Shown here: positions 2,271 to 61,511 of the stretch, one piece after another
How the letters are laid out: every line of letters begins with the position of its first letter
How positions within the stretch are numbered: the first letter of the stretch is position 1
Origin: Eledone cirrhosa
Taxonomy: Eukaryota
Direction of reading: 5' to 3'
Length of the DNA: 64,000 nt
Assembly (NCBI GenBank): GCA_964016885.1
Contig: OZ024741.1
Location: forward strand, 238,018,001-238,082,000
Program-made: the position numbers and the translations under genes
The notes under the pieces: model-generated
Databases searched by the model: none
Seen by the model: the letters and a program-made list of their open reading frames with translations, nothing else
What the model was told of the DNA's origin: nothing

Positions 2271-2620
2271 CCTTATTGTATAATCCATTGTTTCCATAGT
2301 ATGTCACTTCAGGCATGTATGTTGGTGTAGTGTTCCAGTGTAACTACTGTAGTGGTGTGACTGTAAATGTTACTGTAGTGATGTCCCATTGTAACTGCCA
2401 CTGTAGTAATGTGACTAACAGTTGTTAGTGGTATAACTGTAACTGCTGTAGTGGTGTGTCAGTGTAACTGCTGTAGTGGTGTAACAGTGTAACTGCTGTA
2501 GTGGTGTAACAGTGTAACTGCTGTAGTGGTGTAACAGTGTAACTGCTGTAGTGGTGTGACAGTGTAAATGCCACTGAAGTGGTGTGACTGCCATGGTAAT
2601 GTTAATGCATATGTTCATTT
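2271..2620 (-). other. Putative 5' leader exon of a further protocadherin gene whose coding exon lies left of the window
   Basis: Donor AGG|GTAAGA at 2271/2270; same gtgtaactgctgtagtg repeat composition and TC-rich intron start as the leaders at 19180, 33831, 44383 and 55861. 5' end approximate. Confidence 0.6.
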
Positions 2621-9170: not shown

Positions 9171-11585
9171 CTGTGGAACTGGTGGTAGTCTTCTGGGTGT
9201 TGTTGAGAACATCCACTCATCTGGTAGATGTTCCATCTCTGGATAAAACTGACTTTTAGATTTTATTGTCTGGAGATTTCTGTTAAATATCTCTTCTGCA
9301 TTTCTGGTTATTGCAACAGGATTGTTGGTCTGATACAATAATTGTCTCATCTCAGTCTGAGACAGAAAGTTTGGATTATCTGCTGTTGTAGGTGAGTTAT
9401 TGGTGTGATTAATACATCTGAAAACACACAGTGTTATTGACACTACAATAGCCACAGATATTATTACAGCTGCTGCTACAATGATAATTACCCAAGTCAT
9501 ATTGAGGTTGTTACCAGTCTGTAAGTGGACAGCATTCAACATTGGAGATGTATCATTACTAACAAACAGTGTTAGTATGATAACAGTTGTTCCTGATTGA
9601 ACTGGAGTACCACCATCTTTCACTATAAACTGTAGGTCATATGTTCCTGCATCATTTTGGTAAACTGTCTGAGAGAAAGATAAGACACCAGTATGGGAGT
9701 TGACTGTAAACAGGTTTTTATCATTAGATCTCAGTATTCCATATGTGAGGAAAGCATTGTTTCCAGTGTCTTTGTCAGAGGCTTTCAGAATTGTGATGTC
9801 TTTCTTACTGTGTGGATGGTAGTGGACATCTAGATTGTAAGGGTCATTAATAGGAAAGGTAAAATAGGGAGCATTATCATTTTTATCTAGAATCTCAATA
9901 ACAATATTGGCAGTGTCATTCAGAGAAGGTGTTCCATTATCTTTGACTAAAACCTGGAAGTTATAGATGTCTTTCACTTCCCGATCTATTGATTGTGATG
10001 TAGAAATAAATCCATATTTTGTAAGTTGGAAAGGAATGTTATCATTGTTGTTATCATTGATGATAGAATATGTAAGTTGACCTCCATCTTCAAGATCAGG
10101 GTCTGTAGCATTGATGAAGCCAATAGGGAAGTCAACTTTCTGGTTTTCATAGGTGAGGAATTGGAATGTATCTTTGGTAAAATGTGGCTGTACATCATTG
10201 ACATCAGTTACTTTGACAGAGAAATATTTCTTAGTTTCTAGTTGAGGCGATCCCATATCATGACATACGATAGATACTTTATAGTGGTCGTTTATTTCTC
10301 TATCAAGATGTCCCTTAACAATCATTTTATATTCTTTAGAATCTATTTTGGCAAGTTTAAATTTATCATGTTTTAAGTCACAGCTAACCTCACCATTAGG
10401 TCCAACATCAGTGTCAGTGACCATAACATAAGCTATAAAACTATCTAGTTCACTGTCTTCTGAAATTGCTGTGGAACTTTCTGTTAAAGGAGATACAAAA
10501 TCTATATTTATCACTGGAGCATTATTTTGGGTATTTATAAAATTTATTTGAACCTTTGCAATGGAGCTCAAAGAAGGATTTCCCATATCTCTAGCTTCAA
10601 CAAATAAATTATATATTTGCTCCATATCAAAGCTAAATTTTTCCTTTAGGAAAATCTCTCCAGTAATTGTATTTAATGTGAAATGAGTTTTTGTCTGCTT
10701 TGATGTTTGTTGGTTATATAAATAAAAAATCTTAGCATTTTGTCCAGTATCCTCATCAGTTGTTGATAAACTCAGTATTGGAGATGTTGTTTTCTGTGAA
10801 TTTGTAATTGTGACATTATACATATTCTGGGAAAATACTGGTCTATTATCATTATCATCTGTTAAAATGATAATAATCTTCAAAATGTCATATTTTGGTG
10901 GAGACCCTCTATCCTTTGCTAATAACTCTAATATATGGTTAGCTTTTGTTTCCCTGTCCAACTTCCTTTCTAAAACTATTTCAGGTGTAAATATGTTGCC
11001 ATATATGTTTGATGTTATCAATGAGAAGAATCCACCAATGTTTTTATTAAGTTGGTATCTAATATTTGAATTCTGAACACTAACATCTTCGTCAATGGAA
11101 TTAGGAAGGGACTTTTTAGTTCCTATTCCATCATTTTCACCAAATTCCAGATGGATTTCATCTTTTGGAAACTTGGGCGCATGGTCATTTATGTCTTCTA
11201 TAATTATTTTAACCCTTAAAATCTTCATAAAAGTTTTTCCTTTCCTCGCTGCTACTTTAACAATTCTGGAACATTCCTTGTTATATGTACACAGTGACTC
11301 AGCATCCAGTGTCTGTGTAGTGTATAGTTTTCCTGTGTTGGTGACATTAAATAAGTGAGAACCACTTGACACTGTCCTTTGTAGTTGTGTAAATGTAATG
11401 AGAGTGTGTTGTTGATGTGTAAGAGAGTTTGTTAAGTTAGAATCAACAGCAATGTCTCCTATATAGGTGTGAGGACTGTCTTCTTCATTGACATGATAAG
11501 TAATGTCTATAGACAGTACAAGGGTCATCAGTAAATGTAATAGACACACATGTATTGTAATATATCCAATCATCATCATCATCAT
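9171..11585 (-). CDS. Pcdh: Protocadherin G1, large exon (signal peptide, EC1-EC6, TM, proximal tail); predicted spliced protein 878 aa
   Basis: Cadherin motifs DINDHAP, LDRE, DDNDNRPVF, DVNDVQP, DKNDNAP; EC1 C-X5-C; TM WVIIIVAAAVIISVAIVVSITLCVF; donor CAG|GTTAGT at 9171/9170 (phase 0); acceptor upstream at 11617. Confidence 0.95.
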
Positions 11586-11849
11586 TAGTCTTCACCATTA
11601 TACAAATAAGAAGATTCCTACAAACAGAAAATAGTTTGATAATAATGACTTCTTTATTTGCACACATATATACACATATCACAAACTGTAGTTACATCTA
11701 GATTAAATATATCTTAAATGTTATCAAATGAGCAAGATGTGGTCACCTGACTTGTCTCGTCACATAATGTGACCACCTGTCTAACACATGCAAGCATGAA
11801 AAATAGGCATTAATTGGTGATGATGATTATTATATATATATATAATGTT

Positions 11850-19179: not shown

Positions 19180-20010
19180 CAGCATTATTTAATCCTTCAC
19201 TGGAGTTGAGTGTGATGGATGATGTATATCCTGCTGTAGTGTTCCACTGTAACTGCTGCTACTGTTATGGTGGTGTTATAGAGTAACTGCTACGGTAGCA
19301 GTGTTCCAGTGTGACTGTTATTGTTGTAGTGTTCAACTATAACTGCTGCTGTGGTAGAGTTTCTGTTTAACTGCTGTTGTAGTGGTATGGTAATGTAAAT
19401 GTTGCTGTTGTAGTTATAGTAGTGTGACAGTGTAAATTGTAGTTGTAGTAGTAGTATGACAGTATAAGTGTTGCTGTAGTAGTGTGGCACTGTAAGTGTT
19501 GCTGTAGTAGTTTGACAGTGTAAGTGTTAGTGTAAGTAGTGGCAATGTAAAGTTGCTGCAGTGGTGACAGTGTAAGTGTTGGTGTAGTAGTATGATAGTG
19601 TAAGTATTGCTGTTGTAGTGTGACAGTGTAAGTATTACTGTTGTAGTGTGACAGTGTAAATGTTGGTATAGTATTGTGACAGTGTAAATTTTGCTGTAGT
19701 AGTATGACAGTGTAAGTATTGGTATAGTAGTGAGACAGTGTAAGTGATGCTGTAGTAGTGTGACAGTGTAAGTGTTGGTGTAGTAGTGTGACAGTGTAAG
19801 CGTTGCTGTAGTAGTATGATAGTGTAAGTGTTGGTGTAGTTAATGTGATAGTGTAAGTGTTGCTGTAGTAGTATGGCAGTGTAAGTGTTGGTGTAGTTAA
19901 TGTGACAGTGTAAGTGTTGGTATAATAGTGTGGGAGTGTAAGTGTTGGTGTAGTAGTGTGACAGTGTAAGTGTTGGTGTAGTTAATGTGATGTTTCTGAA
20001 TTGCTGGCAG
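19180..20010 (-). other. Putative 5' leader exon of G1, expanded by a ~28-bp minisatellite
   Basis: Donor CTG|GTAAGTCTC at 19180/19179; 3' part (taatccttcactg...ggatgatgtatatcctgctgtagtgttcca) homologous to the leaders at 33831, 44383 and 55861; unit gtgtaagtgttggtgtagtagtgtgaca. 5' end approximate. Confidence 0.7.
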
Positions 20011-24092: not shown

Positions 24093-24553
24093 CTGTGGAT
24101 TATAAACGGTTAAAGATTGAAACATGATTTTAACTAGAGTAACTGTTTACATTTATTAGCTAAATTGATCTTTCTATGAAACAAAAAAGGAGTCATTTTA
24201 TACAATGTCATTAAACATCCACAAAATCAGTAGATAACTGTACATATTGACCAAATTATATTGATATCGTAAACAATGCAGAAAAGAGCTTGATTTTCAA
24301 TACAAACTAGACATTGTTTTAAAAACTTTCCACTAAATAACAATATTACTGTGTTCAATTAAATATGATAAATTATGCCAAATATTTATGTCTCAAATAT
24401 ATTAGGATACATATAAAAGAATCTGTAGGATTTCAGTGATATCTTTACCAAAGATGTAGCTTGTAATTTTCAAATGAAAACTAATATTCATCTTCTTTAA
24501 ATAATCAATTGAATCACTCAAATTTAGTATAAGATATCAAATGTAATATTTAC

Positions 24554-26953
24554 CTGTGGAACTGGTGGGAGTCTTCTGGGTGTTGTTGAGAATTTCCACT
24601 CATCTGGTAGTTGTTCCATCTCTGGATAAAACTGACTTTTAGATTTTATTGTCTGAAGATTTCTGTTAAATATTTCTTCTGCATTTCTAGTTATTGCAAC
24701 AGGGTTGTTAGTCTGATACAGTAATTGTCTCATCTCAGTTGGAGACAGAAAGTTTGGATTATCTGCTGTTGTAGGTGAGTTATTGGTGTGATTAATACAT
24801 CTGAAAACACACAGTGTTATTGACACTACAATAGCCACAGATATTATTACAGCTGCTGCTACAATGATAATTACCCAAGTCATATTGAGGTTGTTACCAG
24901 TCTGTAAGTGGACAGCATTCAACATTGGAGATGTATCATTACTAACAAACAGTGTTAGTATGATAACAGTTGTTGCTGATTGAACTGGAGTACCACCATC
25001 TTTCACTATAAACTGTAGGTCATATGTTCCTGCATCATTTTGGTAAACTACCCGAGAGAAAGATAAGACACCAGTGTGGGAGTTGACTGTAAACAGGTTT
25101 TTATCATTAGATCTCAGTATTCCATATGTGAGGAAAGCATTGTTTCCAGTGTCTTTGTCAGAGGCTTTCAGAATTGTGATGTCTTTCTTACTGTGTGGAT
25201 GGTAGTGGACATCTAGATTGTAAGGGTCATTAATAGGAAAGGTAAAATAGGGAGCATTATCATTTTTATCTAGAATCTCAATAACAATATTGGCAGTGTC
25301 ATTCAGAGAAGGTGTTCCATTATCTTTGACTAAAACCTGGAATTTATAGATGTCTTTCATTTCCCGATCTATTGATTGTGATGTAGAAATAAATCCATAT
25401 TTTGTAAGTTGGAAAGGAATGTTATCATTGTTGTTATCATTGATGATAGAATATGTAAGTTGACCTCCATCTTCAAGATCAGGGTCTGTAGCATTGATGA
25501 AGCCAATAGGGAAGTCAACTTTCTGGTTTTCATAAGTGAGGAATTGGAATGTATCTTTGGTAAAATGTGGCTGTACATCATTGACATCAGTTACTTTGAC
25601 AGAGAAATATTTCTTAGTTTCTAGTTGAGGTGATCCCATGTCATGACATACAATAGATACTTTATAGTGGTCCTTTATTTCTCTATCAAGATGTCCCTTA
25701 ACAATCATTTTATATTCTTTAGAATCTATTTTGACAAGTTTAAATTTATCATGTTTTAAATCACAGCTAACCTCACCATTAGGTCCAACATCAGTGTCAG
25801 TGACCATAACATAAGCTATAAAACTACCAACTTTACTTGCTTCTAAAACTGCTGTGGAACTTTCTGTTAAAGGTGATACAAAATCTATGTCTATCATTGG
25901 AGCATTATTCTGGTTATTGATTATATGAATTTGAACTGCGGTTACTGAACTCAAAGGAGGTTTTCCTCCATCTCGTGCTTCAATAAATAGTTTATAAAAC
26001 TCAATCTTACTAAAGGGAAAATTATCATGTAAAAATATCTCTCCAGTTTTCTTATCTAATACAAAATATTTCTGGGCATTTCGAGATGTTTTATGGTTGA
26101 AATGATAAGAAATCTTTCCATTGTCTCCAGAATCTAGATCTGTGGCTTTTAAAGTTAGAATTGGTAAATGTTTTTGATGTGAATTATTTATAGATATGTT
26201 GTAGACTTTCTGTGAAAACACAGGTGTGTTATCATTAACATCTGTCAAAGCTATGAGTACTTTGAGGGTAGCTGTTTTGGGAGGGTTCCCTCCATCTTTA
26301 GCTTCAAGTGTCAACATATATGAGTCTTTTATTTCCCTGTCTAATTTCTCTTCTAAAGTTAATTCAGGTATGAAGACTCCATCATGTCGCCTTGTGACAG
26401 ACAGGGCAAATGGTTCTCTCTTACTTTTCTTAATCATATATGTAATTTGAGAATTTCTCATTGAAATATCTTGATCAATGGCATTTGGAAGAGAGATTTT
26501 ACTTCCTTTAAAATCTTTTTCAGAAAATTCAATTTCAAATTCATTGTCTGGAAATTCTGGTGGATGGTCATTGATGTCTTCTATAATTATTTTTATCTTC
26601 AATATCTTCAGAAATGTTTCTGCTTTCCTCACTGCTACTTTAACAATTCTGGAACATTCCTTGTTATATATACACAGTGACTCAGCATCCAGTGTCTGTG
26701 TAGTGTATAGTTTTCCTGTGTTGGTGACATTAAATAAGTGAGAACCACTTGACACTGTCCTTTGTAGTTGTGTAAATGTAATGTGAGTGTGTTGTTGATG
26801 TGTAAGAGAGTGTGTTAAGTTAGAATCAACAGCAATGTCTCCTATATAGGTGTGAGGACTGTCTTCTTCATTGACATGATATGTAATGTCTATAGACAGT
26901 ACAAGGTTTATCAGTAAATGTAGTAGACAGAGTAGACCAATATATGTTGTCAT
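24554..26953 (-). CDS. Pcdh: Protocadherin G2, large exon; predicted spliced protein 875 aa
   Basis: Six cadherin repeats, signal peptide, TM; donor CAG|GTAAAT at 24554/24553; acceptor at 26991. Confidence 0.95.
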
Positions 26954-27229
26954 GTCTGCAATTCTTCCTCACACTTTAGCAGTAGAAATTTCTACAAAAG
27001 ACAAAAGAAATATCTTAAGTTGAAAATGATTAAATCATCATGATTTTACATGGTTTAAGTGGGTTGTTATACTCTGATTTAATTGTTATTAGGAGGTACT
27101 GTTCTCTTGGAGGAGTCAAGGAAACTATTACTCTCATATATTCCCATCTTGGTTTAGCTTTTTATAGTTGGATGCTGTCCCTAACATCAACTCCCCTTCA
27201 GTGTGTACTGAGAAAATACTTGTAACATT

Positions 27230-29190
27230 TTGTTCACCAAAAGAAATATAGTTGATCTGGAAGACAATGTAATTAATGGTGACATGACAGATGAACAGAA
27301 AGGCAAGGTTACATGAGGACAATAGAAGCTGAACCTAGACACAAATAGATGAATGAAATTCTAAATACATCAGAACAATTAACATCATAGAAACAAATAA
27401 TCTGATAAAGTCAGCAAGCTTTGTTGTAGCAGAAAACATGGAGGTAGATATCAAGAAGAAGAAAAGTAGAATACAGGCTAGCATAGATATGTCCTAGAAG
27501 GACATTTCTGTCTTAGACAAAGAAGAGAAGAGGGTGTTTAAAAAGGAACAATACAGAGCACTAAAAAGAATGTATATCATTGAAAGAAATATACCTAAAA
27601 GCAGTAATGGAGGACCTCTAGTAACGTCTTATGGCAAAGAAAGCTAAGATAGAAAGATATAACCAAAGAATAATGCAATATCAGCAAAATAGATTTTTCA
27701 GAGTAGACCAAATGAGATTTTACCAAGAAATAAATGGAGTGTGTACAGATAAAGTGATGATACCAGATAGCAATGAAAGTCAAAAGGTTGAAGACACATT
27801 TGGAGTAAAGAGAAAGTACACAAGAAAAACGCTAAATAGTTACAAGAACTAAGGGATATGAAGGAAGTCAGAAAAAAGATGAGAATTGGAAGTCTCTGGG
27901 ACCAGTTGGACTTCAAGGCCACACTGGATCAAAAGATTTAGTGAATGCCATGTACACATAGCTGAACAACTCAACATATTGTTAAATGCTGGCCAAGTAA
28001 TACTAGAGTGGCTGTCAAAGAGGAGGACAGTTCTGTCCTTGAAAGACATCACAAAAGAAACAACTACACACTGATATCATGCTTACTACATATGTGGAAG
28101 TTATTTACTGGAATAATCACTGAGTCAATGAAGAAGCATCTTGAAGAAAATGGAATTTTACCAGACAAGCAGAAAAGGTGCAAGCATAAGTGCAGCGGTA
28201 CCAAGGACCAATTTTTGATATCAAAACAATATTTAGCGATTGCAAGAGGAAGAAAACCAACTTGGTCATGTCGTAAATTGATTACCTGAAAGCCTATGAT
28301 ATGATCCCACATTCTTGGATCATGGAATGTGTGAACCTAGAAACAGAAAACAAAACTGACAGCATGTTAAAGAAGCTTAGAGTGTGCTTGAATTCAAAGG
28401 TTGCCAACAGAAGGTTAACCATTTAAGGACAACTTCAAACTTTATGATAAGGATGAATCCCAGGTCAGTTCCTTCGTTGTTATGGTGTATATGTTTAGTG
28501 CTGACATCAGAATGGAGTTTGGATTGAAAAAGTGAGGTGTGTTAGGTTTGAACAGTAGCAAAATTAAACACATGGAGAGGTTGGTGTTGCCATTGGGGAG
28601 GTCATGAAGCAAATAGAAGAGGAAATTATACACACTTAGGGATACTGTAAATGGACAAAGTAATGGAGGAGGAAATGAAAGAAAAAGTTAAGGTGGAATA
28701 CTTGTGCAGACTTGTCCTCATCTTGAAATTGAATAGACAGAATAGATAGAAGCTATCAACCCAGAGGCAGTCTCACCCTTTAGATATGGAACAGCGATGG
28801 TACGTGGGCAGTAGAAACACTAAACAGCTTAGACTAAAAGACATTGACTTGGTATGGGGTATTTCATCCAAAGAGTGATACAAACAGATTGCATGTACCA
28901 AGAAAAAGATGAGGAAGAGATCTGATTGAGTTTGAGGACAGCATAAGAGCAGAAGAAATCAACATGGCAGGTTACCTAAAAATGCGACAGAACTGCTAGT
29001 GGTGGAAGAAAGAAGGTCAGGGTTGTACAAAATTGAAGATTGCAAATATAAAAAACAGTACAAGTATTTGAAGATGGATAAAACTGAAAATAATTGGCCA
29101 GAAAGAAGAATACATAGACAATTCCATAGATATGTTGAAGATAGGACAGACAGAAAAAAGGTGGTTATGAGTGACTAAAAGTAATGTAAA
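27230..29190 (+). mobile_element. Degenerate R4/Dong-like non-LTR retrotransposon in G2 intron 1
   Basis: Broken-frame motifs RYNQRIMQYQQNRFF, IDYLKAYDMIPHSWI, FHPKSDTNRL; repeated in G3-G5 introns. Confidence 0.7.
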
Positions 29191-29399
29191 ATCTTTGTTG
29201 GGATTTGATAGCTGACTAAATACTCCAGTGTATTTTCCATCTACATTGCATGATAAAGTGATAATAATGATAGTGATGGATAATGGGGTTGGGTAGGGTG
29301 GGCTATTTGATGCTTCCATCCTTCATTACTCAGTCAACATGATGTAAAGTGTATTATGGTGGTATTATAGAAGAGAGTGGTAACTAAATCCTAACCTTC

Positions 29400-30000
29400 C
29401 CTCTTAAAGCAAGATTTCAATAGTATGAGTTCCCGGTCAGAACCACCCTATGTCATCTTTGTCCTATGTCTTCCTTGGGATCTCTCTTCCACAGATTTCA
29501 CTAACTTCAAGCACTTGGCACTTCTTCATACAACTGTCATTCTCCATGTATGTACCATTGTAACTGCCTCTCTTGTACACTACATCTGATTACTCTCATA
29601 TTCAATTTTCTCTCGGCTACATGTGTTCTGTCATTCACACACACTAATATTACACACCCAGTAGAGTATATATGTTTCATTTCTTTCTAGCCATCACAAA
29701 TCTGCATTTAAGCACCATGTCCCACTACCATGAAGCATGGCAGTTCAAATAAAAGCCTTATACAATGTATAAAAATGAAAAGCACGTTATTGCCAGCAGA
29801 GGTAATAACTCCTGATTTTATTCCCCTCTGTAGTCACTTAGGCTAAGCTTTCAGTACACCCCACCCCACTGTTAATGAGGTTACCTAAACAGAAGCAGCT
29901 ATCAACTACTTCAAGAGAAGCTTCGGGATGTCTGAGGGAGCTCATTTCATAAAGAATGAGTAATGTTATTGTTGACTTCTGTACATCTATCACATACAGC
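29400..30000 (-). mobile_element. Old RTE LINE relic (also ~41390-41990, ~53230-53850, 63930 onward)
   Basis: Minus strand resembles EVVDSF.YLG and GR.RPRKTWD motifs of the young RTE at 30017. Confidence 0.5.
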
Positions 30001-30016
30001 AATATATTCAGCACAA

Positions 30017-31761
30017 CTAATCAGAGAGAGAATTAATCTAGATGAAATGCAGTTCGGTTTTGTGTCAGGCAAAAGTAACACAGACGCTCTTTTCATTGTA
30101 CGACAACTACAGGAGAAGTACCTAGCTAAAAGTAAACCCCTATACTTAGCTTTTGTTGACTTGGAGAAAGCCTTCGAAAGAGTTCCCCGTTCCATTATCT
30201 GGTGGGCTCTTAGAAAACTAGGTGTTGACGAATGGCTTGCGAGAGCTATACAAGCCATGTATAAAGAAACAGTCAGCAAGGTTAGAATTAACAACGAATA
30301 TAGTGAGGAGTTTAGTGTAAAAGTTGGTGTTCATCAGGGCTCTGTTCTTAGCCCCCTACTATTTATTATTGCCCTTCAGGCTATAACAGTGGAGTTCAAG
30401 ACCGGCTGCCCATGGGAACTCCTATACGCAGATGATCTAACGCTCATAGCTGAATCAATGGCCGAGCTAGAGAAGAAATTCCAAACATGGAAGCACGGCC
30501 TAGAATCAAAAGGCCTTAAAATTAACCTGGCTAAGACTAAAGTTATAGTTTGTAGGAAAGAAAATAAGGCGACGGTCCCTTCCGGGAAATGGCCATGCTC
30601 AGTGTGTAGGAAAGGCGTAGGTAGAAACTCCATTTTATGTCCCAAATGCAAAGTATGGGTGCATAAAAGATGTAGTGGGATCAAAGGTAAGCTAACTAAG
30701 AACATAGATTTTACATGTGGCCGGTGCTCTGGTGCAATAAGTAGCAGCAAGTGCCCACAAAATACTAGCTCTTTCAATTGCGCAGAGGGTTCTATAGAAA
30801 TAGTGGACAGCTTCCGTTACCTGGGTGACAAAATCAGCAGTGGGGGAGGGTGCTCTGAAAGTACAGTAGCTAGAGTCAGAACTGGATGGAAAAAGTTCAG
30901 AGAGCTTATACCACTATTAGCCACTAAAGGGTTCTCCCTAAAAATGAAAGGCAGGTTGTATGATGCCTGCATACGAACAGCAATGTTGCATGGCAGTGAG
31001 ACCTGGGCATTGTGTGCAGAGGATATACGCAGACTAGAGAGGAACGAAGCTTGCATGCTCCACTGGATGTGTAATAGTAATATACGTGAACGGCAAAGCA
31101 TAAGCGAACTAAGGAAAAAATTAGAAATAAGAGGGATCAGATGTTGTTTACTCGAGAGAAGGCTACGTTGGTATGGTCACGTGATGCGCATGAAAGACGA
31201 CAGCTGTATAACAAAGTGCAGGGCAATAAAGATAGACGGTAGCTACGGAGTAGGCAGACCCAGAAAAACCTGGGACGAGCTGATAAATTCCGACCTCACA
31301 CACTTACACCTCTCCAAGACAATGTCACTGGACCGAGACCTTTGGCGGTACTCAGTAATAAAGAAGACCCGCCTTACCTAAATACATAGTAAAACCTACT
31401 ACAGTCAGTAGGCATCTCTAACAAAATACACCCCCGTCCCACCCCATCCACACCGCCCCTTTCAATGTAAAGTTATGTTGGTGCCACAACATCCAGGCCG
31501 AAACAAATGAGATCGTGTAGGTGTCACGACAAAAAAACACACAGTCCACGCTGTAATGTGGCCGTGTAGGCAACACGGTAAAAACCTCCCAGTCCCACAC
31601 TGTAAATGTGGTTGGTGTTAGGAAGGGCATCCAGCTGTAGAAGACCCACCAAACAGTCCTATGCGAGCATGACAATCACTCTTGCCTCAAGTGGGAAAGC
31701 CCCCGTCCAAACCCATGCAAGCGTGGAACACGGACGTTAAACGTTGATGATGATGATGATG
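30017..31761 (+). mobile_element. Young 5'-truncated RTE-clade LINE; open RT C-terminal half with PHD-like finger
   Basis: QFGF, FVDLEKAFERV, GVHQGSVLSP, YADD, RLRWYGHV, GRPRKTW; (GAT)n tail; absent at paralogous empty sites ~41995 and ~53848. Confidence 0.95.
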
Positions 31762-33356
31762 AAGGTTCTCTATAACCCACCGGAGCTAATGTAGGCTGTG
31801 AATATTAGATGGTACAGATCGTTTGGGTTAACAATGGCCTCACTATCATCAGTACACAGCTTACCAACATGACTAAGACAATATCAAATGTAGTTGAACC
31901 AATATGAGGAAGGACGTTTCCTTCAACAACACCATCTCACATATGTTTGGATTATATTGGAACTAAACAGAGGTGTGTGGGTCAAAATAGTAAGTTCATC
32001 ATGATTCAGCACACTTCACAATAATAAGTACCATGGATGAAAGTTACACAGCATCTTGGCCTCCATGTATAGACCACATAAATGCCGCTGTTTTGTATCA
32101 CAGAGCAAGGTTTTTCCGAAATTCATCCAAATACTTGATTATTTAAAATCATATTTGAATATCATAGGCAGTGGATTTATTAGAAATATGGTAATGAAAG
32201 GGTTAAGGTGATGTAATTCATTCATCTAGGATACCAGGTGTTGTATTACATTCTTCAGTGTCAACCATGATGCTTTGGTCATAAACCTAGGTGTTGCCAC
32301 ATGCAATTCAGGAGAGTAAACTGATTAAATACCAGCCATTAATGGTCAAATTCCATTTCACACTAGCTACTGTTAAGACCTCCAATGTTCTTGGTTCCCA
32401 CACTACCGACTTCTTATGCTAAATTAGAATGAGGGGATCACCATCGAGGAAGGATCCTTTTTGTAGTGGAATGGCTGATTAAATGGATACCAGTGGCTGG
32501 TTTGTTATGCCAAGGCTTTTGACATCTTCTGATATGTAGCTATGATATACTGTTCAACCAACATTTTCTTTTCCGATTGAAAAATTAAATAAATTTCATA
32601 ATGTTTAAAAAAAATATGTAAATGTTATTTATTTCTAAATACACTTTATTAGACTCATGTGAATAATTTTTAATATATCATCTCTTCTGATGTGATAATG
32701 GTTACATGCCTATGGCTAGATGTGGTAGCTGGATGATACAGGAGGAAAACAAAATGTACTAAAGTGTATGTTAAAACATGGACATTTCCTTCTTGCTTAA
32801 ATGCTGGATGAAATATACTGAAATTGTATCGAACTGCATTTATTGTTGTCAGAGTTAACATACTTTAACAATACACGACAATATCATTAGTTTCTATCTC
32901 ACAATACATATAGTAAGATATATACACTACATTATATTTATGAACATTTTAATAATGCTAAATATTCTGTTAGATTTCATTAAAGCCAGAGAAAGATTAA
33001 GATATAATTACTGAATTATTATGACAATAGCTATAAACTATATTAACATGCATTACAAACATTCAGTCTTATTGGCTATCAAACAATATATTCTAATAGT
33101 TAAATATTACACCTAGTTTGAACTGTCACATCAATATTGTATATAAAATATATAGTAGCAATATATACAGTTTAATATTATAGTGTGTTTTATATGACTC
33201 TGACATTACAATATGTAGTCTATCTAGAGGTAATTGTACTACTACTACTACAGCAGTTGTTGTTGTTGTTAATGGTGGAAGTGATGGCAAGATCTCTCTA
33301 TTTCACATGAGCCCATTTCTTGTGGGTGTATATGTGTGTGTATAAATATATATATA

Positions 33357-33460
33357 TACAGGGTATCCCCCAAAATGGATACACACTTTGATTACCTGTA
33401 CAGGCATTATTTATTAGAATGCTGTTGAAGTAAGTTTACACTTTTTGGGGACACCTTGTA
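33357..33460. mobile_element. ~100-bp Tc1/mariner-type MITE
   Basis: TA CAGGGTATCCCCCAAAA...TTTTGGGGACACCTTG TA imperfect TIRs within a (TA)n tract; second copy 43501-43604. Confidence 0.75.
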
Positions 33461-33830
33461 TATATAAGCTCGACCTGATGATGATGATATATATATATAT
33501 CATTATTATCATTTAATGGCTGTTTTCTCATACATATATATATAGCACACATTTTTAATTTTGTGCTTAGCCTGTTTCACTATAAACATATCATCATTCT
33601 CATCACCTTTTAGTGATAAGGCTGATGTGTTTATAATGAAACACAGGCTAAAGACAATATAAATGTTATGATTATGAACAAGAGGGAGACAAAGGGAAAA
33701 AGAGAGAGATAGGTATATAGATAGACAGATAAATAGAGAGATAGATAGACAGACAGATAGATAGATAGAGAGAGAAATAGATAGACAAACAGATAGAGAG
33801 AGAGATAGAGATAGAGCAAGAGAGACTTAC

Positions 33831-34100
33831 CTTCATTGTTTAATCCTTATCCTTCACTGTAGTAGCATGTAATGGATGATGTGTATCCTGCTGTAGTGTT
33901 CCAGTATGATGGCTGCTACTGCTGTAGTTGTGTTATAGTGTAACTGCTGCTACTGTAGTGTCCCATAATAATTGCTTCACTGCTGTAATGTTTCAGTGTA
34001 ACTGCTGCTGCTGCTGCTATGGTGTTCCTGTGTAACTGCTGATATTGCTGTGTCAATGTGTAACTGCTGGTGTGACTGTAGCTATATGTAGTGGGAGGAG
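33831..34100 (-). other. Putative 5' leader exon of G2
   Basis: Consensus donor AAG|GTAAGT at 33831/33830; near-identical copies at 44383 and 55861. 5' end approximate. Confidence 0.75.
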
Positions 34101-34280
34101 GGATGTTAACTAGATGGTGTTGTGTGAGTTATATCCCTATATCTTCCACACACACAAAAGTGTGTATTATGAACAAAGAAAAAAGCTATCAGCCTCATTT
34201 TGAATATTGAAAGAAATATATAAAATCTTCCTTAACCAATAGGAAATTACTGCAATGTTGTCTGTGTAACAGAAACACAG
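34090..34280 (-). promoter_or_regulatory. Putative G2 promoter (CTCF-like ACTAGATGGTGTTG at 34109-34122, CCAAT at ~34236)
   Basis: Directly upstream of the leader exon; repeated upstream of the G3 and G4 leaders and partly at the pseudogene. Confidence 0.5.
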
Positions 34281-35973: not shown

Positions 35974-38373
35974 CTGAGGAACTTGTGGAAGTCTCCTTTG
36001 TGTTGTTGAGAATTTCCACTCATCTGGTAGCTGTTCCATCTCTGGATAAAACTGACTTTTAGATTTTATTGTCTGAAGATTTCTGTTAAATATTTCTTCT
36101 GCATTTCTCGTTATTGCAACAGGATTGTTGGTATGATACAGTAATTGTCTCATCTCAGTCTGAGACAGAAAGTTTGGATTATCTGTTGTTGTAGGTGAGT
36201 TATTGGTGTGATTAATACATCTGAAAACACACAGTGTTATTGACACTACAATAGCCACAGATATTGTTACAGCTGCTGCTACAATGATAATTACCCAAGT
36301 CATATTGAGGTTGTTACCAGTCTGTAAGTGGACAGCATTCAACATTGGAGATGTATCATTACTAACAAACAGTGTTAGTATGATAACAGTTGTTGCTGAT
36401 TGAACTGGAGTACCACCATCTTTCACTATAAACTGTAGGTCATATGTTCCTGCATCATTTTGGTAAACTACCCGAGAGAAAGATAAGACACCAGTGTGGG
36501 AGTTGACTGTAAACAGGTTTTTATCATTAGATCTCAGTATTCCATATGTGAGGAAAGCATTGTTTCCAGTGTCTTTGTCAGAGGCTTTCAGAATTGTGAT
36601 GTCTTTTTTACTGTGTGGATGGTAGTGGACATCTAGATTGTAAGGGTCATTAATAGGAAAGGTAAAATAGGGAGCATTATCATTTTTATCTAGAATCTCA
36701 ATAACAATATTGGCAGTGTCATTCAGAGAAGGTGTTCCATTATCTTTGACTAAAACCTGGAATTTATAGATGTCTTTTACTTCCCGATCTATTGATTGTG
36801 ATGTAGAAATAAATCCATATTTTGTAAGTTGGAAAGGGATGTTATCATTGTTGTTATCATTGATGATAGAATATGTAAGTTGACCTCCATCTTCAAGATC
36901 AGGGTCTGTAGCATTGATGAAGCCAATAGGGAAGTCAACTTTCTGATTTTCATAGGTGAGGAATTGGAATGTATCTTTGGTAAAATGTGGCTGTACATCA
37001 TTGACATCAGTTACTTTGACAGAGAAATATTTCTTAGTTTCTAGTTGAGGTGATCCCATGTCATGACATACGATAGATACTTTATAGTGGTCTATAGTTT
37101 CTCTATCAAGATGACCCTTAACAATCATTTTATATTCTTTAGAATCTATTTTGGCAAGTTTAAATTTATCATGTTTTAAATCACAGCTAACCTCACCATT
37201 AGGTCCAACATCAGTGTCAGAGACTACAACATAAGCTATAAAACTATCTATTTCACTGTCTTCTGAAACTGCTGTGGAACTTTCTGTTAAAGGAGATACA
37301 AAATCTATATTTATCACTGGAGCATTATTCTGGTTATTAATTACATTAATTTGAACTGTTGTTACAGAACTAAGTTGAGGATCACCTCCATCTTGTGCTT
37401 CAATAAATAATAAATAGGATTGCATCTTACTAAAGTTAAAATTATCATGCAAAAATATCTCTCCAGTTTTCTTATCTAATACAAAATATTTCAGTGCATT
37501 TCGAGATGTTTTATGGTTGAAATGGTAAGAAATCTTTCCGTTGTGTCCAGAATCTAAATCTGTGGCTTTTAAAGTAAGAATTGGTAAATGTCTTTGATGT
37601 GAATTATTTATAGATATGTTGTAGACTTTCTGTGAAAATACAGGTGTGTTATCATTAACATCTGTCACAGCTATGAGTACCTTGAGGGTAGCTGTTTGGG
37701 GAGGGTTCCCTCCATCTTTAGATTCAAGAGCCAACATGTATGTGTCTTTCATTTCCCTGTCTAATCTGTCTTCTAAAGTTAATTCAGGTACGAAAACACC
37801 ATCATGTCGTCTTGTGACAGAGAGGGCAAATGGTTCTCTTTTACCTTTCTTTATCATGTATGTAATTTGAGAATTTTGTATTGAAATGTCTTTATCAATA
37901 GCATTTGGAAGAGGAATTGTATCCCCTTTACTATCTCTCTCTAGAAAATTAACCGTAACTTCATTCCTTGGAAATTCTGGTGAATGATCATTGATGTCTT
38001 CTATAATTATTTTTATCTTAAGAATTTTCATAAAAGTTTTTCCTTTCCTCACTGCTACTTTAACAATTCTGGAACATTCCTTGTTATATATACACAGAGA
38101 CTCAGCATCCAGTGTCCGTGTAGTGTATAGTTTTCCTGTGTTGGTGACATTGAATAAGTGAGAACCACTTGACACTGTCCTTTGTAGTTGTGTAAATGTA
38201 ATGAGAGTGTGTTGTTGATGTGTAAGAGAGTATGTTAAGTTAGAATCAACAGCAATGTCTCCTATATAGGTGTGAGGACTGTCTTCTTCATTGACATGGT
38301 ATGTAATGTCTATAGACAGTACAAGGGTCATCAGTAAATGTAGGAGACAGAGTAGACCAATATATGTTGTCAT
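35974..38373 (-). CDS. Pcdh: Protocadherin G3, large exon; predicted spliced protein 875 aa
   Basis: Six cadherin repeats, signal peptide, TM; donor CAG|GTAAAT; acceptor at 38408. Confidence 0.95.
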
Positions 38374-38879
38374 GTCTGGAATTCTTCACACTTTAGCTGC
38401 AGAAATTTCTACAAAAGACAAAAGAAATATTTTAAGTTGAAATATGAATAAATCATCATGATCATTATGGTTCTACATCCACTTTCCACACAGACATGGG
38501 TTAGGTGGGCTGTTATACTCCAATTTAATTGTTATTAGGAAGTACTGTCCTCCTGGATGAGTCAGGAAACTTACTTGTTACTTAATGTTACATTAATCTA
38601 TTCAAATTTTGTTTTTATAGTTGGATGCCTTCCCTAACATCAACTATTCTACAGTGCGTACTGATGAAATGCTCGTAGCAACAGTAGTAGAAAGGTTGCC
38701 ATGTCTTGACCAAAAGAGTCCTCTTTAGACTACTTAATTTTGTCAAATTCTTTTCAGAGTGTATTTGTGACATTTTGTAGTGACACCAGTACTGACGAGG
38801 TTGTCAAGTCCTCAATATGACTAAAGAGTCCTTTAAGGATCACACATGGAGAAAGCCCACAAAAAACCATGGTCACCCT

Positions 38880-44030: not shown

Positions 44031-44382
44031 ATATATATATATATATATATATCATAATTATCATTTAATGGCTGTTTTCTCATACATATATATATAGCAC
44101 ACATTTTTAATTTTGTGCTTAGCATGTTTCACTATAAACATATCATCATTCTCATCACCTTTTAGTGATAAGGCTGATGTGTTTATAATGAAACACAGGC
44201 TAAAGACAATATAAATGTTATGATTATGAACAAGAGGGAGACAAAGGGAAAAAGAGAGAGATAGGTATATAGATAGACAGATAAATAGAGAGATAGATAG
44301 ACAGACAGATAGATAGAGAGGGAGAGAGATAGATAGACAAACAGATAGATAGAGAGAGAGAGATAGAGCAAGAGAGACTTAC

Positions 44383-44650
44383 CTTCATTGTTTAATCCTT
44401 ATCCTTCACTGTAGTAGCATGTAATGGATGATGTGTATCCTGCTGTAGTGTTCCAGTATGATGGCTGCTACTGCTGTAGTTGTGTTATAGTGTAACTGCT
44501 GCTACTGTAGTGTCCCATAATAATTGCTTCACTGCTGTACTGTTTCAGTGTAACTGCTGCTGCTGCTGCTATGGTGTTCCTGTGTAACTGCTGATATTGC
44601 TGTGTCCCTGTGTAACTGCTGGTGTGACTGTAGCTATATGTAGTGGGAGG
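44383..44650 (-). other. Putative 5' leader exon of G3 (promoter block upstream, ~44645-44830)
   Basis: AAG|GTAAGT donor; near-identical to 33831. Confidence 0.75.
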
Positions 44651-47610: not shown

Positions 47611-50004
47611 CTGAGGGACTGGTGGAAGTCTCCTTTGTGTTGTTGAGAATTTCCACTCATCTGGTAGCTGTTCCATCTCTGGATAAAACTGACTTTTAGA
47701 TTTTATTGTCTGAAGATTTCTGTTAAATATTTCTTCTGCATTTCTCGTTATTGCCACAGGATTGTTGGTATGATACAGTAATTGTCTCATCTCAGTCTGA
47801 GACAGAAAGTTTGGTGGATTATCTGCTGTTGTAGGTGAGTTATTGGTGTGATTAATACATCTGAAAACACACAGTGTTATTGACACTACAATAGCCACAG
47901 ATATTATTACAGCTGCTGCTACAATGATAATTACCCAAGTCATATTGAGGTTGTTACCAGTCTGTAAGTGGACAGCATTCAACATTGGAGATGTATCATT
48001 ACTAACAAACAGTGTTAGTATGATAACAGTTGTTGCTGATTGAACTGGAGTACCACCATCTTTCACTATAAACTGTAGGTCATATGTTCCTGCATCATTT
48101 TGGTAAACTGTCCGAGAGAAAGATAAGACACCAGTGTGGGAGTTGACTGTAAACAGGTTTTTATCATTAGATCTCAGTATTCCATATGTGAGGAAAGCAT
48201 TGTTTCCAGTGTCTTTGTCAGAGGCTTTCAGAATTGTGATGTCTTTTTTACTGTGTGGATGGTAGTGGACATCTAGATTGTAAGGGTCATTAATAGGAAA
48301 GGTAAAATAGGGAGCATTATCATTTTTATCTAGAATCTCAATAACAATATTGGCAGTGTCATTCAGAGAAGGTGTTCCATTATCTTTGACTAAAACCTGG
48401 AATTTATAGATGTCTTTTACTTCCCGATCTATTGATTGGGATGTAGAAATAAATCCATATTTTGTAAGTTGGAAAGGAATGTTATCATTGTTGTTATCAT
48501 TGATGATAGAATATGTAAGTTGACCTCCATCTCCAAGATCAGGGTCTGTAGCATTGATGAAGCCAATAGGGAAGTCAACTTTCTGGTTTTCATAGGTGAG
48601 GAATTGGAATGTATCTTTGGTAAAATGTGGCTGTACATCATTGACATCAGTTACTTTGACAGAGAAATACTTCTTAGTTTCTAGTTGAGGTGATCCCATA
48701 TCATGACATAAAATAGATACTTTATAGTGGTCGTTTATTTCTCTATCAAGATGTCCCTTAACCATCATTTTATATTCTTTAGAATCTATTTTGGCAAGTT
48801 TAAATTTATCATGTTTTAAGTCACAGCTAACCTCACCATTAGGTCCGACATCAGTGTCAGTGACCATAACATAAGCTATAAAACTATCAATTTTACTTGC
48901 TTCTGAAACTCCTGTGGAACTTTCTGTTAAAGGTGATACAAAATCTATATTTATCACTGGAGCATTATTTTGGTTATTGATTACACGAATTTGAACTGCA
49001 GTTACTGAACTCAAAGGAGGTTTCCCTCCATCACGTGCTTCAATAAATAATTTATAAAACTCAATCTTACTAAAGTGAAAATTATCATGTAAAAATATCT
49101 CTCCAGTTTTCTTATTCAATACAAAATATTTCTGGGAATTTCGAGATGTTTTATGGTTGAAATGATAAGAAATCTTTCCATTGTCTCCAGAATCTAGATC
49201 TGTAGCTTTTACTGTAATAATTGGTAAATGCCTTTGATGTGAATTATTTATAGATATGTTGTAGACTTTCTGTGAAAATACAGGTGTGTTATCATTAACA
49301 TCTGTCACAGCTATGTGTACCTTGAGGGTAGCTGTTTGGGGAGGGTTCCCTCCATCTTTAGCTTCAAGTGTCAACATATATGAGTCTTTTATTTCCCTGT
49401 CTAATTTGCCTTCTAAAGATAATTCAGGTATGTAGACTCCATCATGTCGCCTTGTGACAGAGAGGGCAAATGGTTCTCTCTTACCTTTCTTGATCATGTA
49501 CATAAGCTGAGAATTTTTTATTGAAATATCTTGATCAATGGCATTTGGAAGAGAGATTTTTGCTCCTTTTGTGTCTCTCTCGAAAAATTCAATTTTAACT
49601 TCATTGTCTGGAAATTCTGGTGAATGGTCATTGATGTCTTCTATTACTATTTTTATTTTCAATATCTTCATAAATGTTTCTGCTTTCCTCACTGCTACTT
49701 TAACAATTCTGGAACATTCCTTGTTATATGTACACAGTGACTCAGCATCCAGTGTCTGTGTAGTGTATAGTTTTCCTGTGTTGGTGACATTGAATAAGTG
49801 AGAACCACTTGACACTGTCCTTTGTAGTTGTGTAAATGTAATGAGAGTGTGTTGTTGATGTGTGAGAGAGTGTGTTAAGTTAGAATCAACAGCAATGTCT
49901 CCTATATAGGTGTGAGGACTGCCTTCTTCATTGAGATGGTAAGTAATGTCTATAGACAGTACAATGTTTATCAGTAGACAGAGTAGACCAATATATGTTG
50001 TCAT
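47611..50004 (-). CDS. Pcdh: Protocadherin G4, large exon; predicted spliced protein 873 aa
   Basis: Six cadherin repeats, signal peptide, TM; donor CAG|GTGAAT; acceptor at 50042. Confidence 0.95.
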
Positions 50005-50899
50005 GTCTGGAATTCTTCATCACACTTTAGCAGTATCAATTTCTACAAAAGACATAAGAAATATTTAAAGTTGAAATATGAGTAAATCATCATGATCGTT
50101 ATGGTTTTAACAATTTAATTGTTATTAGGAGGTACTGTCCTCCTGGATGGGCCAGGGAAACTTACTTGTTACTAATGTTCCACTAGTCTATTCAAATTTT
50201 GTCTTAGTTTTTATAGTTGGATGCCTTCCCTAACATCAACTATTCTACAGAGTATCCTGATAAAATGCTTTTAGCAACAATAGTAGCGAGGTTACCATGT
50301 CACTAACTAAAGAGTCCTGTCTAGCCTACATTATTTATTTGTGCCTAACGTAGAAACAATTATTTACTTTCAATAGTCAACCCTTTTTCAGAGTTTATTT
50401 ATTGCATTTTATAATAGCACCAGTATTGAAGAGGTTGTCAAGTCCTCAGCAAGACTAAAGAGTCCTCCCAATTTTACATTGTCTCCATTTGCTCATCAGT
50501 TACTTTACATGACAAGGTACCTCTTCACTCCATGTGGTTTCCATCATTTCAAGGCAAATGTAACAGAGATGGTGTTTGAAGTGTGTATGTTTGTGTGTAA
50601 GGGTAGAAGATGATAACCTAGAGTGTGAAAGTGACAGTAATGGGTAGGAGGTTGAATAAGAAAACAGTATGAGCAATGCCAATAGGAATGAGTCATGATA
50701 TGAAAGAGTGAATAATGGGTTTCACAGAGAACAAAGTGACAGATTTCAGTCATATGGTTCTTATGGAATTAGGAGAAGTTAAGCTCTGAATTTTTGCAAA
50801 TAATGGGTGAAGTAGGAGAGGAAAGCAGTTCTATGAAGAAGGTGGCAATAGAAAATTATATGAATATGTTCATATCTGTTGCCAGGTATGGGTGATTAA

Positions 50900-55860: not shown

Positions 55861-56125
55861 CTTCATTGTTTAATCCTTATCCTTCACTGTAGTAGCATGT
55901 AATGGATGATGTGTATCCTGCTGTAGTGTTCCAGTATGATGGCTGCTACTGCTGTAGTTGTGTTATAGTGTAACTGCTGCTACTGTAGTGTCCCATAATA
56001 ATTGCTTCACTGCTGTAGTGTTTCAGTGTAACTGCTGCTGCTGCTATGGTGTTCCTGTGTAACTGCTGATATTGCTGTGTCCCTGTGTAACTGCTGGTGT
56101 GACAGTAGCTATATGTAGTGGGAGG
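55861..56125 (-). other. Putative 5' leader exon of G4 (promoter block upstream, ~56120-56310)
   Basis: AAG|GTAAGT donor; near-identical to 33831. Confidence 0.75.
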
Positions 56126-57990: not shown

Positions 57991-60390
57991 CTGAGGAACT
58001 TGTGGAAGTCTCCTTTGTGTTGTTGAGAATTTCCACTCATCTGGTAGCTGTTCCATCTCTGGATAAAACTGACTTTTAGATTTTATTGTCTGAAGATTTC
58101 TGTTAAATATTTCTTCTGCATTTCTGGTTATTGCAACAGGATTGTTGGTATGATACAGTAATTGTCTCATCTCAGTCTGAGACAGAAAGTTTGGATTATC
58201 TGCTGTTGTAGGTGAGTTATTGGTGTGATTAATACATCTGAAAACACACAGTGTTATTGACACTACAATAGCCACAGATATTGTTACAGCTGCTGCTACA
58301 ATGATAATTACCCAAGTCATATTGAGGTTGTTACCAGACTGTAAGTGGACAGCATTCAACATTAGAGATGTATCATTACTAACAAACAATGTTAGTATGA
58401 TAACAGTTGTTGCTGATTGAACTGGAGTACCACCATCTTTCAATATAAACTGTAGGTCATATGTTCCTGCATCATTTTGGTAAACTGCCCGAGAGAAAGA
58501 TAAGACACCAGTGTGGGAGTTGACTGTAAACAGGTTTTTATCATTAGATCTCAGTATTCCATATGTGAGGAAAGCATTGTTTCCAGTGTCTTTGTCAGAG
58601 GCTTTCAGAATGGTGATGTCTTTCTTACTGTGTGGATGGTAGTGGACATCTAGATTGTAAGGGTCATTAATAGGAAAGGTAAAATAGGGAGCATTATCAT
58701 TTTTATCTAGAATCTCAATAACAATATTGGCAGTGTCATTCAGAGAAGGTGTTCCATTATCTTTGACTAAAACCTGGAATTTATAGATGTCTTTTACTTC
58801 CCGATCTATTGATTGTGATGTAGAAATAAATCCATATTTTGTAAGTTGGAAAGGAATGTTATCATTGTTGTTATCATTGATGATAGAATATGTAAGTTGA
58901 CCTCCATCTTCAAGATCAGGGTCTGTAGCATTGATGAAGCCAATAGGGAAGTCAACTTTCTGGTTTTCATAAGTGAGGAATTGGAATGTATCTTTGGTAA
59001 AATGTGGCTGTACATCATTGACATCAGTTACTTTCACTGAGAAATATTTCTTAGTTTCTAATTGAGGTGATCCCATGTCATGACATACAATAGATACTTT
59101 ATAGTGGTCTATAGTTTCTCTATCAAGATGACCCTTAACAATCATTTTATATTCTTTAGAATCTATTTTGGCAAGTTTAAATTTATCATGTTTTAAATCA
59201 CAGCTAACCTCACCATTAGGTCCAACATCAGTGTCAGAGACTATAACATAAGCTATAAAACTATCTATTTCACTGTCTTCTGAAACTGCTGTGGAACTTT
59301 CTGTTAAAGGAGATACAAAATCTATATTTATCACTGGAGCACTATTCTGGTTATTAATTACATTAATTTGAACTGTTGTTACAGAACTAAGTTGAGGATC
59401 ACCTCCATCTTGTGCTTCAATAAATAATAAATAGGATTGCATCTTACTAAAGTTAAAATTATCATGCAAAAATATCTCTCCAGTTTTCTTATCTAATACA
59501 AAATATTTCAGTGCATTTCGAGATGTTTTATGGTTGAAATGGTAAGAAATCTTTCCGTTGTGTCCAGAATCTAAATCTGTGGCTTTTAAAGTAAGAATTG
59601 GTAAATGTCTTTGATGTAAATTATTTATAGATATGTTGTAGACTTTCTGTGAAAATACAGGTGTGTTATCATTAACATCTGTCACAGCTATGAGTACCTT
59701 GAGGGTAGCTGTTTGGGGAGGGTTCCCTCCATCTTTAGATTCAAGAGCCAACATGTATGTGTCTTTTATTTCCCTGTCTAATCTGTCTTCTAAAGTTAAT
59801 TCAGGTACGAAAACACCATCATGTCGTCTTGTGACAGAGAGGGCAAATGGTTCTCTTTTACCTTTCTTTATCATGTATGTAATTTGAGAATTTTGTATTG
59901 AAATGTCTTTATCAATAGCATTTGGAAGAGGAATTGTATCCCCTTTACTATCTCTCTCTGGAAAATTAACTGTAACTTCATTCCTTGGAAATTCTGGTGA
60001 ATGATCATTGATGTCTTCTATAATTATTTTTATCTTAAGAATTTTCATAAAAGTTTTTCCTTTCCTCACTGCTACTTTAACGATTCTGGAACATTCCTTG
60101 TTATATATACACAGAGACTCAGCATCCAGTGTCCGTGTAGTGTATAGTTTTCCTGTGTTGGTGACGTTGAATAAGTGAGAACCACTTGACACTGTCCTTT
60201 GTAGTTGTGTAAATGTAATGTGAGTGTGTTGTTGATGTGTAAGAGAGTGTGTTAAGTTGGAATCAACAGCAATGTCTCCTATATAGGTGTGAGGACTGTC
60301 TTCTTCATTGACATGATATGTAATGTCTATGGACAGTACAAGGGTCATCAGTAAATGTAGTAGACAGAGTAGACCAATATATGTTGTCAT
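57991..60390 (-). CDS. Pcdh: Protocadherin G5, large exon; predicted spliced protein 875 aa; leader exon lies right of the window
   Basis: Near-identical to G3; donor CAG|GTAAAT; acceptor at 60425. Confidence 0.95.
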
Positions 60391-61091
60391 GTCTGGAATT
60401 CTTCACACTTTAGCAGTAGAAATTTCTACAAAAGAGACAAGAAATATTTTAAGTTGAAATATGAATAAATCATCATGATCATTATGGTTCTACATCCACT
60501 TTCCACACAGACATGGGTTAGGTGGGCTGTTATACTCCAATTTAATTGTTATTAGGAAATACTGTCCTCCTGGATGAGTCAGGAAACTTACTTGTTACTT
60601 AATGTTACATTAATCTATTCAAATTTTCTTTTTATAGTTGGATGCCTTCCCTAACATCAACTATTCTACAGTGCGTACTGATGAAATGCTCGTAGCAACA
60701 TTAGTAGAAAGGTTGCCATGTCTTGACCAAAAGAGTCCTCTTTAGACTACTTAATTTTGTCAAATTCTTTTCAGAGTGTATTTGTTACATTTTATAGTGA
60801 CACCAGTACTGACGAGGTTGTCAAGTCCTCAATATGACTAAAGAGTCCTTTAAGGATCACACATGGAGAAAGCCCACAAAAAACCATGGTCACCCTGATC
60901 ACTAAGGCAAGTGCCCTCTGTCAGTTGTCCTCCTCCAATCTACAGGTTCATACTCAGAGTAGGACTATTAGGAAAGGGAAAGTACAGTAGAGGACAGGGG
61001 TAAAGAAATTTCTGGTAACCTACAGAAAAGAGACAGTGATATTTTGTTCACCGAAAGAAATATAGTTGATCTGGAAGACAATGTAATTAAT

Positions 61092-61270: not shown

Positions 61271-61511
61271 ATGTAATTAATGGAGACATGACAGATGAAC
61301 AGAAGGTAATATATGACAGAATAAAGGCAAGGTTACATGAGGACAATAGAAGCTAAACCTAGACACAAAAAAGATGAATGAAATTCTAAAATACATCAGA
61401 ATAATTAACATCATAGAAACAAATAATCTGATAAAGTCTGCAAGCTTTGTTGTAGCAGAAAACATGGAGGTAGATATCAAGAAGAAGAAAAGTAGAATAC
61501 AGGCTAGCATA

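Follow-up and report, generated by a model that had tools for sequence, protein, structure and literature searches.

Most upstream open reading frames (uORFs) have peptides that evolve neutrally (PMC7889888). In yeast, uORFs ending nearer the main start codon repress more strongly (PMC10259493), and reinitiation after short uORFs rises with the distance from their stop (PMC5972666; PMC10193022). Octopus neurons lack the vertebrate variable-exon scheme for protocadherins (PMC9068888), and the main-text passages of PMC9068888 and PMC6339937, supplements aside, make no mention of exons of the untranslated region at the 5' end (5'-UTR) or of uORFs of coleoid protocadherins. A description of uORFs in cephalopod protocadherins was not found in the literature, of which subscription papers and supplements were incompletely covered. 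Here we analyse a window of 64,000 nt from the genome of Eledone cirrhosa (C2:238018001-238082000), which holds five protocadherin coding exons, G1 to G5, all on the minus strand. The non-coding first exons (leaders) of these genes end in an ATG whose frame, after splicing, closes on the main start codon. Judging from the sequence, this ATG may open a conserved repressive overlapping uORF, with the protocadherin made by leaky scanning, an interpretation to which we give an even chance.

The assignment of G1 to G5 to the protocadherins follows from their cadherin repeats, their N-terminal Cadherin_2 domain and homologues that carry this name. The closest named proteins are octopod entries called 'protocadherin beta-15-like', with at most 84% identity over residues 1-260; among the named public proteins the best values are 84% for Octopus sinensis and 80% for Argonauta hians. 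The parts of the uORFs and of their host genes are as follows.

24524..26953, minus strand: large coding exon of G2, a protocadherin with signal-peptide-like N-terminus, cadherin repeats and a transmembrane-like segment; A of the main ATG at 26953
33831..34265, minus strand: non-coding first exon (leader) of G2, 5' end at or beyond 34265
33831..33836, minus strand: codons 1-2 of the G2 uORF (ATG AAG), the last six bases of exon 1; A of the upstream ATG (uATG) at 33836, A at -3
26992..33830, minus strand: 5'-UTR intron of G2, 6,839 nt, GTAAGT...TTTTGTAG
26950..26991, minus strand: codons 3-15 and stop of the G2 uORF, exon 2 starting at 26991; the TGA (26952-26950) overlaps the main ATG (ATGA)
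33866..34198, minus strand: three extra uATGs in the G2 leader, at 34198 (30 codons), 33966 (16) and 33868 (4), each frame closing inside exon 1
44383..44388, minus strand: uATG and donor of G3
38370..38408, minus strand: exon-2 part of the G3 uORF, 35-nt UTR, ATGA stop
55861..55866, minus strand: uATG and donor of G4
50001..50042, minus strand: exon-2 part of the G4 uORF, 38-nt UTR, ATGA stop; a second ATG, in the +1 frame, lies 16 nt ahead of the main start
60387..60425, minus strand: exon-2 part of the G5 uORF, 35-nt UTR; main ATG at 60390
19180..19185, minus strand: uATG (ATG CTG) and donor of G1
11582..11617, minus strand: exon-2 part of the G1 uORF, 32-nt UTR, same frame; 12 codons, ending in a TAATG overlap

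The leader of G5 lies outside the window, at the equivalent of position 66926 (C2:238084926). A sequence-only reading of this window had described leaders of G2 to G5 that end in ATG AAG|GT and a spliced uORF whose TGA falls on the main start; this arrangement was reproduced, the peptides given for G2, G3 and G4 were recovered exactly and G5 shares their frame. The corresponding element of G1 had been overlooked. In G2 to G5 the uORF comprises 14-15 codons, the exon-2 UTR measures 38, 35, 38 and 35 nt, respectively, and in all four genes a further CAG is located 2 nt ahead of the main ATG, so that two acceptors, one distal and one proximal, are conceivable. Both yield the identical uORF frame.

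The splice from leader to coding exon is supported for G2 by RNA-like contigs at the donor, while the acceptor base is predicted. A contig of 531 nt and putative RNA origin (X22 contig 16) shows 4 differences in its alignment over 33831-34265 and exits exactly at the G2 donor with 96 letters remaining. Its depth value of 7.22 recurs in exon 2 at 26946, and several unique bins of the G2 intron are without X22 cover. Contigs from two other organisms (X5 and X1, whose RNA nature is a guess) likewise link exon 2 to the leader across the intron. The X5 contig reaches 34293 in the leader and extends to 26976 in exon 2, past the proximal CAG, and thus the distal acceptor is used there.

Taken by themselves, G2 to G5 do not go beyond chance. 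The leaders of G3 to G5 differ from that of G2 by 3-4 substitutions in 430 nt, and the four genes amount to about one independent event; we therefore rejected counting these near-identical recent duplicates as four confirmations. Moreover, an ATG followed by A automatically provides a TGA in the -1 frame, and for a single event in the right frame the probability of being open up to the AUG is 0.40, as estimated from shuffled G2 UTRs. The 3-nt length difference between paralogues, which had been taken as a sign of frame preservation, reduces to a single deletion, within a (GAN)n run, that a three-gene clade has in common; steps of 3 nt (39/42/45 nt) are present also where the leader frame is dead. 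It is the wider comparison that exceeds chance.

For this comparison C2:237.92-238.58 Mb was surveyed, where 50 genes could be paired with leaders; the 52 leader ends are made up of these, one orphan and one extra. A 21-nt leader-end pattern with one mismatch allowed gives 62 matches genome-wide, with two C2 arrays accounting for 52, compared to 4 for the control. Automatic acceptor calls are unreliable for C2:238456116, 238385954, 252476954, 239498434, 239427200 and several genes at 240.0 Mb, and gene 238327782 has an ambiguous leader; unless stated otherwise, such genes are kept within the 50. Thirty-five leaders are live, i.e. carry an ATG followed by a sense codon, five read ATG TAG and ten have no ATG. 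Among the live ones the uORF stops at +2 in 31 and at -2, -5, -13 and +87 in one each, with the result that 33/35 end at -5 to +2 of the main A (31 through ATGA, one through TAATG and one at -5). In 31/35 the frame is out of phase with the main one and its stop (+2 to +4) lies inside the main coding sequence, as in an overlapping uORF. The length of the exon-2 UTR preserves the frame in 33/35 genes with a live leader vs 5/15 with a dead one, these paralogues being non-independent. All 40 leaders that have the ATG carry a purine at -3, with two leaders masked in this count and in that of leader-end substitutions.

G1 to G5 fall into a clade of 28 genes with 100% support, and about 92 substitutions could be mapped onto its 38 UTR columns. 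Within the exon-2 UTR, the uORF frame contains a stop in 0/28 genes, while the other two frames are interrupted in 27/28 and 24/28. In neutral simulations on the tree the probability that all genes stay open is 0.002-0.014; conditioned on G2 to G5 being open it is 0.005, and it is 0.03 if gains of TAG are ignored as well, which was done because TAG might be purged as a rival acceptor. Stop gains in the uORF frame amount to 0.27 vs 6.65 expected (P 0.001), and those in the control frames to 1.5 vs 3.1 (P 0.20) and 2.4 vs 4.7 (P 0.17). The only loss of the ATG inside the clade concerns a frameshifted pseudogene at C2:238156915 (minus strand), which retains a 41-codon frame. Hence, within this one sub-array the frame is conserved above chance and the freedom from stops is specific to it. 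The peptide, in contrast to its frame, appears neutral: the synonymous share of substitutions is 0.265 vs 0.235 under neutrality (P 0.27) and changes are spread over the uORF codon positions as 30/26/36. A conserved-peptide uORF was considered and rejected, as purifying selection on the peptide was not found in the 28-gene clade.

To place the sub-array in a wider frame, three further subfamilies of the same genome were sampled over stretches of 100, 180 and 100 kb, which took in some 40 of the protocadherin matches, these numbering at least 150. At C2:252.4 Mb, 10/10 leaders end in ATG GAG|GT; their uORFs read in frame 0 and close 9 nt ahead of an ATGG start codon (9/10 by automatic acceptor). 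At C2:239.4-239.7 Mb the ATG lies six bases before the donor in 16/19 leaders, five bases in 2 and is absent in 1, and the uORF stops upstream of the main start in 17/17 properly paired cases. At C2:240.0 Mb no leader out of 11 has an exon-end ATG, a two-codon frame is found further up in 8/11, and UTR lengths vary freely. For the two distant subfamilies with the exon-end ATG, N-terminal protein identity is about 50-59%. Public proteins point in the same direction, since residue 2 of the orthologues of the present subfamily is mostly Thr, Asn, Met, Lys or Ile (24/26), giving ATGA, vs mostly Leu or Phe in other subfamilies (43/77), which excludes ATGA. Thus, an ATG at the end of the non-coding first exon appears to be the old common feature, and the overlap with the start codon is confined to one sub-array. 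The suggestion of a cluster-wide translational control device for cephalopod protocadherins consequently holds in part: the frame is conserved beyond the four genes and its specific freedom from stops points to a translated regulatory uORF, but the cluster-wide scope is lost, as the overlap is absent from the three other subfamilies (10, 19 and 11 leaders).

Based on the anatomy, the use of the donor and the pattern of conservation, we infer that the uORF is likely translated and likely repressive. Ribosomes would initiate at the exon-end uAUG, with its purine at -3, and would terminate at the main AUG or immediately beyond it, and so could no longer reach it by scanning; protocadherin output would then come mainly from ribosomes leaking past the uAUG. 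As termination would take place far 5' of later exon junctions, nonsense-mediated decay may in addition lower the amount of mRNA. The apparent target of selection would be the start codon together with a frame open up to the main AUG rather than the peptide, and because an earlier stop would relieve repression, stops would be avoided while the peptide drifts. The precise ATGA stop is a consequence of a residue-2 codon that begins with A. Repression of this kind is likewise compatible with the one gene in which the uORF extends to +87, and with the 39/50 genes that have a +1-frame uATG whose frame passes the main start. We further count in its favour the recurrence of the exon-end ATG in the two distant subfamilies described above.

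Several points weigh against a repressive overlapping uORF. G2 has up to four uATGs, so that few ribosomes may reach the one at the exon end. The simulation models neither indels nor gene conversion and rests on one tree, and it over-predicts stop gains in the control frames about twofold; halving the uORF-frame expectation leaves, by our own arithmetic, roughly P 0.04. The uORFs of the two distant subfamilies stop 9-70 nt upstream of the main start, and the overlap is therefore not required there. A live leader uORF is missing in 15/50 genes, through loss of the ATG or through ATG TAG, and 13 of these 15 have an intact large-exon frame. Finally, the ATG is embedded in a block (GGATTAAACA) that is equally conserved, with 3, 1 and 4 changes at A, T and G vs 0-6 at the ten preceding positions; since the flanks change as little as the ATG, its retention alone is not distinctive.

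The last two observations would also be expected if the uORF were a by-product, i.e. if the end of exon 1 owed its conservation to a DNA or splicing element that happens to contain ATG and was spread by tandem duplication and gene conversion, and if the stop arose wherever A follows the main ATG. This explanation is possible, and we find it clearly less probable than repression. The block resembles Otx-type GGATTA and Sox-type ACAAT motifs and would thus hold putative binding sites. Frame and stop position vary between subfamilies, the peptide is neutral, and with A at +4 the price of a single chance event is no more than about 1/3 x 0.40, all of which speaks for a by-product. It does not predict that stops are avoided in one frame specifically, nor that genes with a dead ATG drift out of frame, a contrast that again comes from non-independent paralogues. 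Furthermore, the ATG outlasts the Sox-like core, with 13 genes that keep ATG and have lost ACAAT, 4 showing the reverse and 6 having lost both.

The stop/start overlap invites a different explanation, coupled termination-reinitiation, in which the uORF is translated, stops at AUGA or UAAUG and the ribosome restarts on the overlapping AUG. Hereby the uORF would carry ribosomes past a decoy AUG in the +1 frame (at -13 or -16), and would promote or gate translation rather than repress it. We regard this as unlikely, even though part of the data is in line with it. In 43/50 genes some -1-frame uORF ends at -5 to +8, and in all 35 genes that have both, this frame starts upstream of the decoy. Such a frame is retained by 10/14 dead-leader genes outside the clade, compared to 1.9 expected by shuffling, these genes again being non-independent. 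The +4 position is A in 43/50 genes, across Thr, Ile, Ser (AGT), Asn, Lys and Met codons; G1 employs TAATG, and one of the two lineages with G at +4 has TAA directly before the start. On the other hand, +4 is unexceptional, with 2 changes vs 4 at +5, 8 at +6 and just 1 at another nearby position, four genes have a decoy without a carrier, and the overlap is missing in the distant subfamilies. The analogy drawn with viral and retroelement systems is borne out by the AUGA/UAAUG overlap itself and fails at its testable feature: UGGGA, motif 1 of termination upstream ribosome-binding sites (TURBS) and expected 40-90 nt upstream of the stop, occurs within 120 nt upstream in 0/50 genes. Nor was a conserved stem-loop found upstream of the overlap (mean fold z +0.35, n=28, range -3.2 to +1.9). 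Known coupled systems, moreover, follow long upstream frames, and reinitiation after short ones improves with distance (PMC5972666; PMC10193022).

A more specific version, TURBS-independent stop-restart across the neuronal sub-array, would have the intron-split uORF ferry ribosomes past the decoy AUG onto the overlapping start, lineages without the exon-1 ATG using another ATG in the same frame; this appears slightly more doubtful still. If it held, reinitiation would set the output of each protocadherin gene and make it accessible to neuronal signals that act on translation. In delayed reinitiation of the ATF4/GCN4 type, an inhibitory overlapping uORF is preceded by a short permissive one. 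The four-codon uORF of G2, which is located at -76, has its ATG only in seven G2-type leaders. Programmed frameshifting into the main frame was rejected: slippery-site matches occur in 15/50 genes, those of the G2-type genes (AAATTTC) are out of phase with the uORF, and in 27/28 clade genes a stop interrupts the main frame ahead of the AUG.

This main-frame stop bears equally on the idea that the exon-1 ATG is a relic or an alternative coding start, which once, or in some isoforms, lay in frame and was later cut off by frameshifts and stops. In its favour, the uORF of the two distant subfamilies is in frame 0, with a stop, one candidate leader of C2:238327782 would be in frame and open, and two public Octopus proteins (P0022 and P0028) open with six residues resembling the -1-frame uORF of the present paralogues. 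Yet an in-frame acceptor is absent in G1 to G5, public orthologues begin at the downstream Met, and avoidance of stops in the -1 frame would not be expected of a relic; we consider this explanation very improbable. A further public protein, P0018, seems to begin at the +1-frame decoy ATG, which may be an artefact of annotation or assembly. Upstream of gene 238327782 there are two leader-like donors (C2:238348424 and 238340039, minus strand) with no protocadherin between them, and the distal one would yield an in-frame N-terminal extension.

Some further features of the locus were recorded. An orphan copy of the leader exon lies at about 2271-2600 (minus strand; donor at 2271), where ATA replaces ATG and where about 100 kb examined downstream holds no protocadherin coding sequence. 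Hidden protocadherin genes were sought in the four longest leader-to-exon gaps of the array, and none was found. The leader exons (33831-34265 and 19180-19981, minus strand) consist largely of imperfect ACTACAGCAG-like repeats, whose copy number differs among paralogues and is strongly expanded in G1, and immediately behind the donor most paralogues have a GA/GATA microsatellite (33700-33828, 44300-44380, 55780-55860). The coding start of G1 is a run of five consecutive ATG codons (11570-11585, minus strand). In the large exon of G1 to G5 the C-terminal half is near-identical and the middle divergent, a pattern expected under regional gene conversion. The 5'-UTR intron of G2 holds an antisense open frame of 473 codons (29960-31381, plus strand) with matches to reverse transcriptase (PF00078) and a PHD finger, which belongs to a high-copy insertion resembling a long interspersed nuclear element, and the G5 intron contains a low-complexity open frame of 206 codons (61350-61970, plus strand).

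With respect to the control of at least 150 octopus protocadherins, an exon-end uAUG common to three subfamilies represents a concrete candidate for a post-transcriptional control point. Natural variation, with the uORF retained, shortened, shifted or lost, offers a ready allelic series. If plain repression is true, the uORF could dampen dosage in a duplicated array; if stop and restart are coupled, a large gene family would here supply one of the rare cellular examples.

By definition the element is an overlapping uORF; it is neither a TURBS system nor a conserved-peptide uORF. Like the eukaryotic overlapping uORFs treated in PMC7889888, it has an out-of-frame AUG in the 5'-UTR and a stop in the main frame, its start is kept while its peptide is neutral, and repression is expected. 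Unlike them, its overlap is minimal (4 nt), an intron of 2-12 kb follows codon 2, and the arrangement is repeated over a tandem array of about 50 genes. With caliciviruses, influenza B, SART1 and mouse GAD (PMC5972666) it shares the AUGA or UAAUG overlap, whereas its upstream frame has 12-16 codons instead of being a long gene and comes without UGGGA or conserved structure. The leader of TP53BP1 V3 in human and zebrafish (PMC10193022) similarly carries a short repressive uORF in good context near the main start and is closest to the C2:252.4 Mb subfamily, where the stop lies 9 nt upstream; it differs in that its stop is located 15 nt upstream and ribosomes are redirected to an internal frame. 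The array itself resembles the coleoid clustered protocadherin sub-arrays described in PMC9068888 and PMC6339937, which likewise consist of tandem, same-strand, multi-exonic duplicates of whole genes.

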